Below, one piece after another: positions 19,673-21,377 of a DNA stretch of 59,395 bases. Location of the stretch: contig JAFGJV010000014.1 of NCBI GenBank assembly GCA_016928955.1, positions 70,014 through 129,408 on the forward strand, in the 5' to 3' direction. The stretch comes from Spirochaetales bacterium. Lineage in GTDB: Bacteria; Spirochaetota; Spirochaetia; Treponematales; UBA12059. The stretch's first letter is position 1. Every line of letters starts with the position of its first letter. A model generated the notes under the pieces. It made no database searches. It saw nothing but the letters and a program-made list of their open reading frames with translations, and was not told the DNA's origin. Both the position numbers and the translations under genes were made by a program.

Positions 19673-20068
19673 ATGGAAGAACTGAAACCGGGCATCCGTG
19701 GAGAGCGCAGCCTGGTGGTGGACGAAGAGCTCACGGCCAGGCATCTGGGTTCGGGCGGCGTGCCGGTGTACGCCACACCCATGATGGTGCTGGCCATGGA
19801 GGAGGCCGCCCTGAACGCGGTGGACCACCTTCTGAGTCCGGGCATGGCCACCGTGGGCTACCACCTGGATATACGGCACCTGGCGGCCACGCCCCTGGGC
19901 ATGCGCGTCACGGCCAGCGCCGAGCTTGTCAAAGTGGACGGCAGGATGCTCACCTTCAAGGTGGAAGCGCGCGACGAGGTCGAGCTCGTGGGCGAGGGCA
20001 CCCATGTGCGGGCGATCATAGACACGGAAAAGTTCGCCGCCAAGCTCAGGGCCAAGACCGGGGCATGA
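19673..20068 (+). CDS. Hotdog-fold thioesterase (fluoroacetyl-CoA thioesterase FlK-like)
   Basis: LGSGGVPVYATPMMVLAMEEAA, TVG, HLAATPLG, GEGTHVR. Confidence 0.88.
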   Translation: MEELKPGIRGERSLVVDEELTARHLGSGGVPVYATPMMVLAMEEAALNAVDHLLSPGMATVGYHLDIRHLAATPLGMRVTASAELVKVDGRMLTFKVEARDEVELVGEGTHVRAIIDTEKFAAKLRAKTGA

Positions 20069-20081
20069 CGGGCGGCCGAGC

Positions 20082-20111
20082 TTGCGTAGCCGGCCGGTTT
20101 TTCGATAGACT
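20082..20111 (+). promoter_or_regulatory. Putative sigma70 promoter for the trpS leader (leaderless start at the leader ATG)
   Basis: TTGCGT-N18-TAGACT, 7 nt upstream of ATG 20119. Confidence 0.5.
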
Positions 20112-20118
20112 TGCCGGC

Positions 20119-20229
20119 ATGAAGCCGATATTCCCGCGGTCAACGCGCCCCGCGCGACCCATCCTCAAGGAAGCCTGGTCCTGGCGACCGGCGGGTTCGC
20201 GCGCCGCCGTTGGCGGCGACGGGGCTTGA
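20119..20229 (+). CDS. Putative Trp-containing leader peptide (36 aa) upstream of trpS
   Basis: MKPIFPRSTRPARPILKEAWSWRPAGSRAAVGGDGA; TGG codons at 20176 and 20182; alternative hairpins follow. Confidence 0.55.
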   Translation: MKPIFPRSTRPARPILKEAWSWRPAGSRAAVGGDGA

Positions 20230-20315
20230 CGGAACCCCGCGAGGCGACCCGCCCCTGTACTTCCGGCCGGCCGCCGCCACAGGCGGCCACGCACCCCGAC
20301 ATCCGGAGCTGAATC

Positions 20316-21377
20316 ATGGAACGCAAACGCATACTCACCGGCGACCGGCCCACCGGCAAACTGCACCTGGGACACTACGTGGGCAGTCTGGCCAACCGCG
20401 TCCGACTGCAGGACCAGTACGAGTGCTTCTTCATCATCGCCGACCTCCACACGCTGACAACCAAGCCCGAAAAAGAGAACATAGAGGCCTTGCCCGACAA
20501 CGTGCGCTCGGCCGTGCTTGATTACCTGGCCTGCGGCATAGACCCGGCCAAGAGCGTCATCTACCTGCAGTCGGCGGTGCCCGAGGTGGTGGAGCTGTCT
20601 TTGTTTTTCCAGAACCTGGTCACCGTGCCGCGCTTGTCGCGCATACCCAGCCTCAAGGAAATGGCCCAGGGCGCCGGCATTGAGGAAATGCCCCTGGGGC
20701 TCCTGGCCTATCCGGTGCTCCAGGCCGCGGACATCCTGCTCCCGCGCGCCCACCTGGTGCCCGTGGGCAAGGACAACGTGGCCCACGTGGAGATCACCCG
20801 GGAGATAGCCCGCCGCTTCAATTACCTGTACGGCGACACGCTCCCCGTGCCGGACGTGATGGTGTCCGAGTACGGTTCCCTGGTGGGCACGGACGGCAAC
20901 GCCAAGATGTCCAAGAGCCTCAACAACGCGATTTTCCTGTCGGACGACCAGAAGACCGTGCACAAGCGCGTTATGTCCATGTACACCGACCCCAAGCGCG
21001 TGTCCGCCGACATACCGGGCACCGTGGAGGGCAACCCCGTCTTCCAGTACCACGACGCCTTCAACCCGGACAAGGCCGAGGTGGAGGACCTCAAGGCCCG
21101 CTACCGCGCCGGCACGGTGGGAGACGTGGAGGTCAAGGAAAAGCTGGCCAAAGCCATCAACGCCTTCCTGGATCCCATCCGGGAGCGGCGCGCGCGCTAC
21201 GAAAGCCAGTCCGGCCTGGCCGACGAGGTGATATACGACGGCACCCTCCGCATGCGGGAGGAGGCACGCGCCACGCTGAGCGCTGTAAAGAAGGCCATGG
21301 GCATGGCGGCCGTGTGGAACCGCGTGGCGCGCAAGGCCGAGGACGTCAAGAAGAAACGCGAAAAGTCCGGGTCCTAA
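20316..21377 (+). CDS. trpS: Tryptophan--tRNA ligase
   Basis: TGDRPTGKLHLGHY, YPVLQAADIL, VPVGKDN, KMSKS. Confidence 0.97.
   Translation: MERKRILTGDRPTGKLHLGHYVGSLANRVRLQDQYECFFIIADLHTLTTKPEKENIEALPDNVRSAVLDYLACGIDPAKSVIYLQSAVPEVVELSLFFQNLVTVPRLSRIPSLKEMAQGAGIEEMPLGLLAYPVLQAADILLPRAHLVPVGKDNVAHVEITREIARRFNYLYGDTLPVPDVMVSEYGSLVGTDGNAKMSKSLNNAIFLSDDQKTVHKRVMSMYTDPKRVSADIPGTVEGNPVFQYHDAFNPDKAEVEDLKARYRAGTVGDVEVKEKLAKAINAFLDPIRERRARYESQSGLADEVIYDGTLRMREEARATLSAVKKAMGMAAVWNRVARKAEDVKKKREKSGS

Follow-up and report, generated by a model that had tools for sequence, protein, structure and literature searches.

A conserved leader with invariant tryptophan codons and a three-way junction upstream of trpS in spirochetes, a candidate ribosome-mediated attenuator

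Directly upstream of trpS, the gene for tryptophanyl-tRNA synthetase (TrpRS), a 59,395-nt stretch of DNA from a Spirochaetales bacterium (GCA_016928955.1, contig JAFGJV010000014.1, positions 70,014-129,408, forward strand; hereafter the window, and its genome G000) carries an RNA leader which, judging by its conservation among relatives, is a real cis-regulatory element. The comparison of these relatives reveals a short upstream open reading frame (uORF) with an invariant Trp-x-Trp motif, an RNA three-way junction that starts 5 nt after it, and an exclusive association with trpS. On balance, we lean towards reading this leader as a ribosome-mediated attenuator, in which a shortage of charged tRNA-Trp would lead to more trpS expression because stalled ribosomes would hide the loading zones of the termination factor Rho. 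The sensor part of this proposal is well supported by the sequence comparison, and the Rho-dependent output, proposed by exclusion and from base composition, is our preferred guess for the step that follows.

A TrpRS protein search of 41 genomes retrieved close orthologues at 23 loci (82-100% identity), all sharing the protein start MERKRILTGD with single-residue variants at some loci. The block TGG-TCC-TGG-CG was found upstream of trpS at 15 of these 23 loci, and the other eight showed a promoter near trpS and no leader. A sample of ~340 genomes was then searched with a covariance model built from 14 of the 15 block-carrying leaders. The window's family gave matches in 19 of its 42 genomes; the order sample gave 21 among 151 genomes, of which 15 came from the 36 of the window's own family and 5 from the 36 of one sister family. 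No element was detected by the model in 78 genomes from four other families of the order, and the only match in a phylum sample of 151 genomes was the window's own (0/150 others). Of the 25 matched loci (24 genomes), all but one (L047), which is cut by the end of its contig, sit immediately in front of a trpS orthologue, and every trpS gene among them has a single element. One genome (G051) harbours two contigs (L038 and L050), each with a trpS ~93% identical to that of the window and a leader of its own, which may be due either to a mixture of strains in the bin or to a duplication. L038 was dropped as nearly identical to L004, leaving 24 distinct leaders; L047 was kept in the corresponding alignment (A4) and stands outside the analyses made with 23 leaders. 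A loose DNA-pattern scan of a species-level genome collection gave, among the matches listed (80 loci), a single real case (L129, 73.8 bits) in a metagenome-assembled genome of Spirochaetota; the other listed loci scored 24-28 bits from the seeded motif alone and are chance matches. A further locus of the sister family (L012, genome G035, positions 1299-1437) keeps TGG-TCC-TGG in frame with an ATG or GTG followed by a divergent RNA; it scored 19.6 bits, was left out of all alignments and may be a decayed or remodelled copy of the leader. DNA nearly identical to that of the window was found in sediment, freshwater, wastewater, sludge and digester metagenomes.

In the 24 distinct leaders, both TGG codons are invariant, and a promoter-proximal ATG opens a frame that runs through them without an intervening stop. 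In the 18 analysed leaders of the window's family, the geometry of the promoter sets the position of this ATG independently of frame, yet the frame is never lost, the distance to the Trp codons being 24, 57, 60, 66, 84 or 93 nt. The codon between the TGGs is TCC, TCA, TCT or GCC, whereas the one after the second TGG is CGA, CGC or CGT in most leaders, and the Ser and Arg codons show synonymous variation among relatives; one low-G+C genome carries Trp-Ala-Trp-Pro-Trp. Conservation is lacking in the peptide upstream of the Trp codons and in the position of the uORF stop, whose offset from the first Trp codon runs from +9 nt, directly past the second, to +75 nt. Because the Trp codons are fixed while the upstream peptide and the stop position vary, the pattern is the signature expected of a leader peptide that is read for its codons rather than for its product. 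An earlier note on this DNA had located promoter elements, uORF, TGG codons and trpS correctly, and had proposed that ribosomes stalling at the Trp codons control trpS. A conserved Trp uORF in relatives, which that note made decisive for its idea, is present in the 24 distinct leaders, and its constant frame with the promoter-proximal ATG gives support to stalling control. The likeness of the N-terminal MKPIFP to the MKAIFV of E. coli TrpL, on the other hand, turned out to be a coincidence, as this part of the peptide is not conserved, and a 36-codon ORF is by itself unremarkable in DNA with 70% G+C.

The promoter of the window matches 7 of 12 consensus positions and stays under the threshold of the promoter scan, hence its absence from the list produced by that scan. 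Nevertheless, the layout TTGNNN, 17-18 nt, TANNNT, 6-7 nt, ATG was present in 18 of 18 analysed leaders of the window's family. Because the ATG lies only 6-7 nt past the -10 box, the uORF of this family is probably leaderless, with a transcript starting at or beside the A of the ATG. In the sister family, the ATG follows the -10 box at a larger distance of 14-19 nt and is accompanied by a weak AGG or GAGG. Just before the first TGG, a conserved Shine-Dalgarno-like purine block stands out, with G frequencies of 70, 80 and 60% at positions -7, -6 and -5, in comparison with ~10% in the preceding C-rich tract.

The RNA that follows the Trp codons can be folded into a three-way junction of helices P1, P2 and P3 (Table 1). 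The second TGG and P1 are separated by 5 nt in 23 of 24 leaders and by 4 nt in the remaining one, and the isolated junction adopts the three-way fold in 23/23 leaders, with energies of -30 to -62 kcal/mol. In the model-based alignment of the 24 leaders, the 18 junction pairs are formed in 93.3% of the cells, against 84.0 ± 0.9 for shuffles (0/500 as high) and 35-55% for slid controls, although this alignment was fitted to the structure of the covariance model, which favours the pairing score. Compensatory changes occur in 10 of the 18 pairs (45 cells), so that the covariation of the downstream stems, suggested as a check in the earlier note, has indeed been found, a conclusion shared by the slid controls and by independent folds of single sequences. 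The 5' strand of P1 reads GGCGGGU.CGC in the window (20190-20200), where the uORF stop falls within the loop of P3 and the strand CGAG sits between P3 and P1; the AG of this strand (CGAG/AUAG) is invariant, and the P2 arm and its loop are variable. Taken alone, the window leader does not fold beyond chance (z = -1.39; 20/200 shuffles fold equally well), and the signal exceeds chance only via the relatives.

As for the pairings first listed for this region, all of them exist: 20202-08 with 20212-18 corresponds to P2, 20191-200 with 20244-52 to P1, 20269-75 with 20282-88 to a hairpin in the spacer before trpS, and 20211-18 with 20272-79 can also form. However, the two helices recognised at the time were part of a larger core, as the third arm (P3, 20220-24/20235-39) had been missed, and the proposed exclusive pairing of 20211-18 with 20272-79 is, like the spacer hairpin, lineage-specific. 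Both the spacer and P2 show variation among relatives, four of which lack the hairpin altogether, with only 26-30 nt of CA-rich RNA between the junction and the Shine-Dalgarno sequence (SD) of trpS. Another exclusive pairing involves the Trp-codon stretch itself, GUCCUGGCG, whose helix with 20217-20225 cannot coexist with the junction. This helix pairs in 89.4% of the cells over the 24 leaders, in comparison with 42-55% for a slid partner, and the conservation of both its sides precludes any reading of covariation. Further upstream, minimum free energy (MFE) folds show positions 20151-20160 of the uORF (CGCGCGACCC) paired to the 5' strand of P1.

Table 1. Features of the trpS leader region, in positions of the window
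Feature	Position	Strand	Description
Promoter-like elements	20082..20111	+	-35 TTGCGT 20082-87, 18-nt spacer, -10 TAGACT 20106-11, 7 nt to ATG
Leader uORF (probably leaderless)	20119..20229	+	36 codons, MKPIFPRSTRPARPILKEAWSWRPAGSRAAVGGDGA, TGA at 20227-29
C-rich, G-poor 5' part of uORF	20122..20166	+	Possible Rho loading zone, by composition
Purine block GGR, Shine-Dalgarno-like	20169..20171	+	Conserved, 5-7 nt 5' of first Trp codon
Regulatory codons TGG TCC TGG (Trp-Ser-Trp)	20176..20184	+	TGG at 20176-78 and 20182-84
Trp-codon stretch GUCCUGGCG	20178..20186	+	Complementary to 20217-20225 (end of P2 and 5' strand of P3)
Three-way junction	20190..20253	+	P1 20190-20200/20244-20253; P2 20202-08/20212-18; P3 20220-24/20235-39; strand CGAG 20240-43
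C-rich spacer	20254..20304	+	Lineage-specific hairpin 20269-75/20282-88, without U-tract
Shine-Dalgarno of trpS, GGAG	20305..20308	+	ATG at 20316; YCGGAGR context kept in relatives
trpS	20316..21377	+	353-aa TrpRS; sole copy found in G000 (one match)

No terminator-like site was found on the plus strand between 20119 and 20316, and hairpin-plus-T7 terminators are used elsewhere in G000. P1 was ruled out as an intrinsic terminator, with no U-tract after it in any of the 22 leaders read, and none follows the spacer hairpins of the relatives either. The conclusion of the earlier note that, without a U-tract, the output would be either Rho-dependent or translational still stands, but folding tests disfavour the second option. 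In such a translational version, which we regard as unlikely, the same sensor would be at work and the stalled ribosome would refold the leader to free the ribosome-binding site of trpS. Its architecture would resemble a mycobacterial case with a leaderless short ORF (sORF), cognate codons and no terminator, as described in the available part of that report (bioRxiv 10.1101/834739), and many leaders have pyrimidine stretches of the UUCC/CUCCG type after P1 that could pair with CGGAG, one of them (L017) with a perfect 6-bp match to the SD (z = -2.4). Yet duplexes between spacer and SD are no better than those of shuffles (mean z +0.30, 1/23 below -1.64), and those between uORF and SD never fall below -1.64 (0/23). 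Moreover, the predicted pairing of the SD is practically the same with the junction enforced (0.71) as with the G-rich core masked (0.70), thermodynamic predictions give shifts above 0.2 in no more than one of the 23 leaders upwards and one downwards, and MFE folds of whole leaders with and without ribosome masks lack a consistent switch. A helix of the 3:4 type, between the 3' strand of P1 and the spacer or SD, was likewise rejected (mean z -0.23, significant in 2/23). Long duplex folds between junction and spacer are uninformative in such G+C-rich RNA, and the excess complementarity between them in 9 of 23 leaders is explained because spacer hairpins often repeat sequences of the arms.

The base composition of the 23 leaders would fit a Rho-dependent output. 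A G-rich core (5' half of the junction, 33% C and 43% G) lies between two C-rich zones and can pair with either: the 5' part of the uORF (41% C, 19% G) on one side, and the 3' strands of the junction (48% C, 31% G) followed by the spacer (41% C, 22% G) on the other, the latter two spanning together an average of 77 nt with 43% C and 25% G. The gene for Rho is present in G000 (TIGR00767 at 718.6 bits, cut-off 509.45). A Rho-dependent output is preferred because an intrinsic terminator, the hiding of the SD and a frameshift route (see below) are set aside, and because of this composition.

Our working model of Rho-dependent attenuation would proceed as follows. When charged tRNA-Trp is scarce, the lead ribosome would wait with the first TGG in the A site, covering the Trp-codon stretch, and, together with any ribosomes queued behind it, the C-rich RNA of the uORF. 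The junction would then close against the ribosome through pairing of its G-rich 5' half with the C-rich 3' strands, P1 acting as the counterpart of the 2:3 helix in the classical trp attenuator. When charged tRNA-Trp is plentiful, the ribosome would run into P1 and leave at the stop codon; a ribosome running on or terminating at any of the observed stops would cover the 5' strand of P1. C-rich RNA would thereby be left bare, either that of the uORF or, if the G-rich core is taken up in pairing with the uORF and the Trp-codon stretch, the ~77 nt of 3' strands and spacer. Rho would load on this bare RNA and halt transcription before trpS. Stalling would thus hide the Rho loading zones (ON), and free-running translation would expose them (OFF). 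The fuller version of this idea, in which a leaderless Trp uORF and the abutting junction jointly hide two Rho loading zones, making up a Rho-dependent tRNA-charging attenuator of a synthetase gene, is put forward only tentatively.

The switch was modelled with an assumed ribosome mask, reaching from 15 nt upstream to 12 nt downstream of the first A-site base, and an assumed unwinding point at +11. In naked leaders, the predicted formation of P1 has a mean of 0.49 (>0.5 in 11/23), which rises to 0.80 with a ribosome on the first TGG (20/23 leaders) and to 0.92 with the whole uORF covered (22/23). With the ribosome on the second TGG it drops to 0.14 (4/23) because the mask reaches the first bases of P1.

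Several observations weigh against Rho-dependent attenuation as outlined here. To begin with, 23 of the 42 genomes of the family, complete ones included, lack the element, and the 24 leaders, all kin and drawn from two families, are non-independent. The model would hinge on which Trp codon stalls the ribosome and on the assumed footprint size. For 11 of 23 leaders, the five analysed from the sister family among them, P1 is predicted to form without any ribosome, so a thermodynamic switch does not hold in general and a kinetic one would be needed. The complementarity between uORF and core reaches z < -1.64 in just 6-7 of 23 leaders, and that of the uORF with the 5' strand of P1 in 6/23; as a whole, the mutually exclusive pairings over the Trp codons combine a helix that is 89% paired with no possible covariation, a P1 switch predicted in about half of the leaders, and weak duplex z-scores. 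Candidate Rho utilization (rut) sites are proposed from C-richness alone, which is weak evidence in high-G+C DNA. In addition, among the metatranscriptome contigs from three RNA runs, which cover parts of the leader and trpS and cannot show starts, ends or levels, one (19811-20213) runs across the proposed promoter, indicating either read-through from upstream or carry-over of DNA.

A different possibility is that the junction itself is the sensor, either of a ligand, of tRNA-Trp or of TrpRS in an autoregulatory circuit, with the uORF as a secondary or second input. Operator RNAs for the autoregulation of synthetases are known, such as that of E. coli thrS, and P1 and the unpaired junction positions, with their invariant AG, are more conserved than simple hairpins would need; the formation of P1 without a ribosome in part of the predictions (11/23) also fits. 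Against this idea, a search of Rfam 15 with positions 19900-20500 of the window (E up to 10) gave only chance-level matches on the other strand, no family, Trp_leader (RF00513) and T-box (RF00230) included, matched on the leader strand or, with E up to 0.5, in five relatives, and no tRNA-like gene was called by ARAGORN. The junction has no arm with a conserved CCA anticodon-like loop, the loop of P2 being variable, and a sensor of this kind would leave the in-frame Trp-x-Trp, the promoter-proximal ATG and the 5-nt spacing unexplained, all of which makes us give it a small chance. Slightly less probable still is control by mRNA stability, where ribosomes stalled on a 5'-terminal uORF would, together with the junction, shield the mRNA from 5'-end-dependent decay. 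Such a role would suit a uORF that starts at or near the 5' end and is followed by a very stable structure (-30 to -62 kcal/mol), but no specific evidence speaks for it, and neither the complementarity of GUCCUGGCG to P3 nor the fixed spacing would be explained. Finally, a shift of frame at hungry Trp codons that takes the ribosome to the trpS start for termination-reinitiation coupling, as would be allowed by the +2 frame of the window, which stays open past the Trp codons until a TGA 3 nt short of the trpS ATG, is rejected as very improbable since the route is not conserved across the 23 leaders: the shifted frame ends within 3 nt of that ATG in only three (L001, L014 and L037), elsewhere the first stop lies 15-150 nt upstream of it or is missing, and trpS is in frame 0, +1 or +2 relative to the uORF in 9, 10 and 4 leaders, respectively.

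Rho-dependent attenuation from a Trp uORF can be placed among known systems. As in E. coli trpL (RF00513) and pheST, tandem codons in a short leader ORF match the function under control, the ribosome position would pick between exclusive pairings, and the stop is placed so that a terminating ribosome would cover the next strand. Unlike them, the spirochete leader has no RF00513 match, no hairpin-plus-U-tract, a three-way junction and a probably leaderless uORF. The trpS T-box of Firmicutes (RF00230) does the same job, giving more synthetase when tRNA-Trp is uncharged, but it binds the tRNA directly without any uORF, and no T-box match was found here. Attenuation of the auxiliary trpRS1 gene of Streptomyces has reportedly been studied in experiments. 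In the same genus, and according to the accessible portion of that work, classical attenuators are predicted before trpS/trpS2 and leuS (Seliverstov et al. 2005, PMC1262725). They share with our case a Trp-codon leader peptide before a TrpRS gene; however, as far as that portion goes, those attenuators have terminators and control an extra copy, whereas the leader described here precedes the sole trpS, lacks a terminator and has an unrelated RNA.

Leaderless polycysteine sORFs of mycobacteria, as presented in the consulted part of the preprint, keep stalled ribosomes that block a duplex hiding the ribosome-binding site that serves the next gene (Canestrari et al. 2020, bioRxiv 10.1101/834739). 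The parallel lies in a short ORF, leaderless there and probably so here, with cognate codons and no classical terminator. Differences, again relative to that part of the text, are the amino acid, the phylum, the RNA and the lack of any predicted duplex hiding the ribosome-binding site in our leaders. Closest in its proposed output is a group of uORFs that control Rho attenuation, established, in the available sections of a review, for tnaC, speFL, cruR, mgtA (mgtL) and corA (corL) (PMC12360218). For cruR, tnaC and speFL an intragenic or adjacent rut site is shielded, and for mgtA and corA stalling favours a Rho-resistant fold, the two ways also considered here. Unlike those uORFs, which in the same sections respond to ions or free ligands by way of proline codons or the nascent peptide, the spirochete leader would sense the charging of tRNA-Trp. 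The only tRNA-charging case found in those sections is hisL, where attenuation 'may combine' intrinsic and Rho-dependent termination (PMC12360218). In line with the earlier note, which knew of no such control in spirochetes, no trpS leader peptide or junction from these bacteria was found in the literature searched, with most subscription journals outside its coverage, and Rfam 15 has no family matching the junction. The leader would be a new form of leader-peptide attenuation.

For the TrpRS encoded downstream, the nearest solved structures are 6ncr (415.9 bits) and then 2a4m/1yi8 (~320 bits), the latter deposited as 'tryptophanyl-tRNA synthetase II'. TrpRS is 82-94% identical between the window's family and the sister family, and 36-48% identical to that of the other families of the order. 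The finding of the leader only with this enzyme type near 'TrpRS II' hints at a joint transfer of gene and leader. In the window, 247 nt with 70% G+C separate trpS from a thioesterase-like ORF (19673-20068), which adjoins trpS in this genome only and is absent within 1.5 kb at 22 other close loci. A 10-nt string, GGCGACCGGC, occurs both at 20183-20192, on the boundary between the second Trp codon and P1, and at 20340-20349, in codons 9-12 of trpS; the repeat is probably due to chance because the trpS copy is not kept at the nucleotide level in relatives.

A survey of G000 for sister switches responding to other amino acids gave 128 leaderless-type promoter+ATG sites, 28 of them with short ORFs, with cognate tandem rare codons before the matching gene at trpS only. 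One site, on the minus strand of contig C50 (~65173-67331 in forward coordinates), has a leaderless-type promoter and ATG, a 37-codon ORF (MISIRFGQYLSCVCS...), a canonical terminator (CCGCGCGG...CCGCGCGG + T7) and then a gene for a 626-aa ABC-F-like ATPase, and looks like a ribosome-mediated attenuator of the ABC-F gene.

Leader-peptide attenuation is textbook knowledge in proteobacteria, and in actinobacteria there are cases that are predicted or demonstrated. If the joint hiding of two Rho loading zones holds true, Spirochaetota would have in the trpS leader their first described leader-peptide attenuator, and one where the sensing of hungry codons is wired to Rho instead of to an intrinsic terminator, in a terminator-less design with a probably leaderless uORF at a fixed 5 nt from the junction. 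Such a leader would offer a clean system to study how the position of a ribosome gates RNA folding, and its compact covariance model can be used to annotate uncultured spirochetes from wastewater and sediment. With regard to physiology, TrpA was not found and TrpB stayed below the cut-off in G000 (99.5% complete), TrpA had no match in 36 of the 42 genomes of the family, which appears to be mostly tryptophan-auxotrophic, and the presence of the leader does not obviously track that of TrpA within the family. As tryptophan synthase was not found, trpS is the obvious gene to tune, and without that enzyme the charging of tRNA-Trp by TrpRS would be the only lever of these bacteria on their tryptophan supply.

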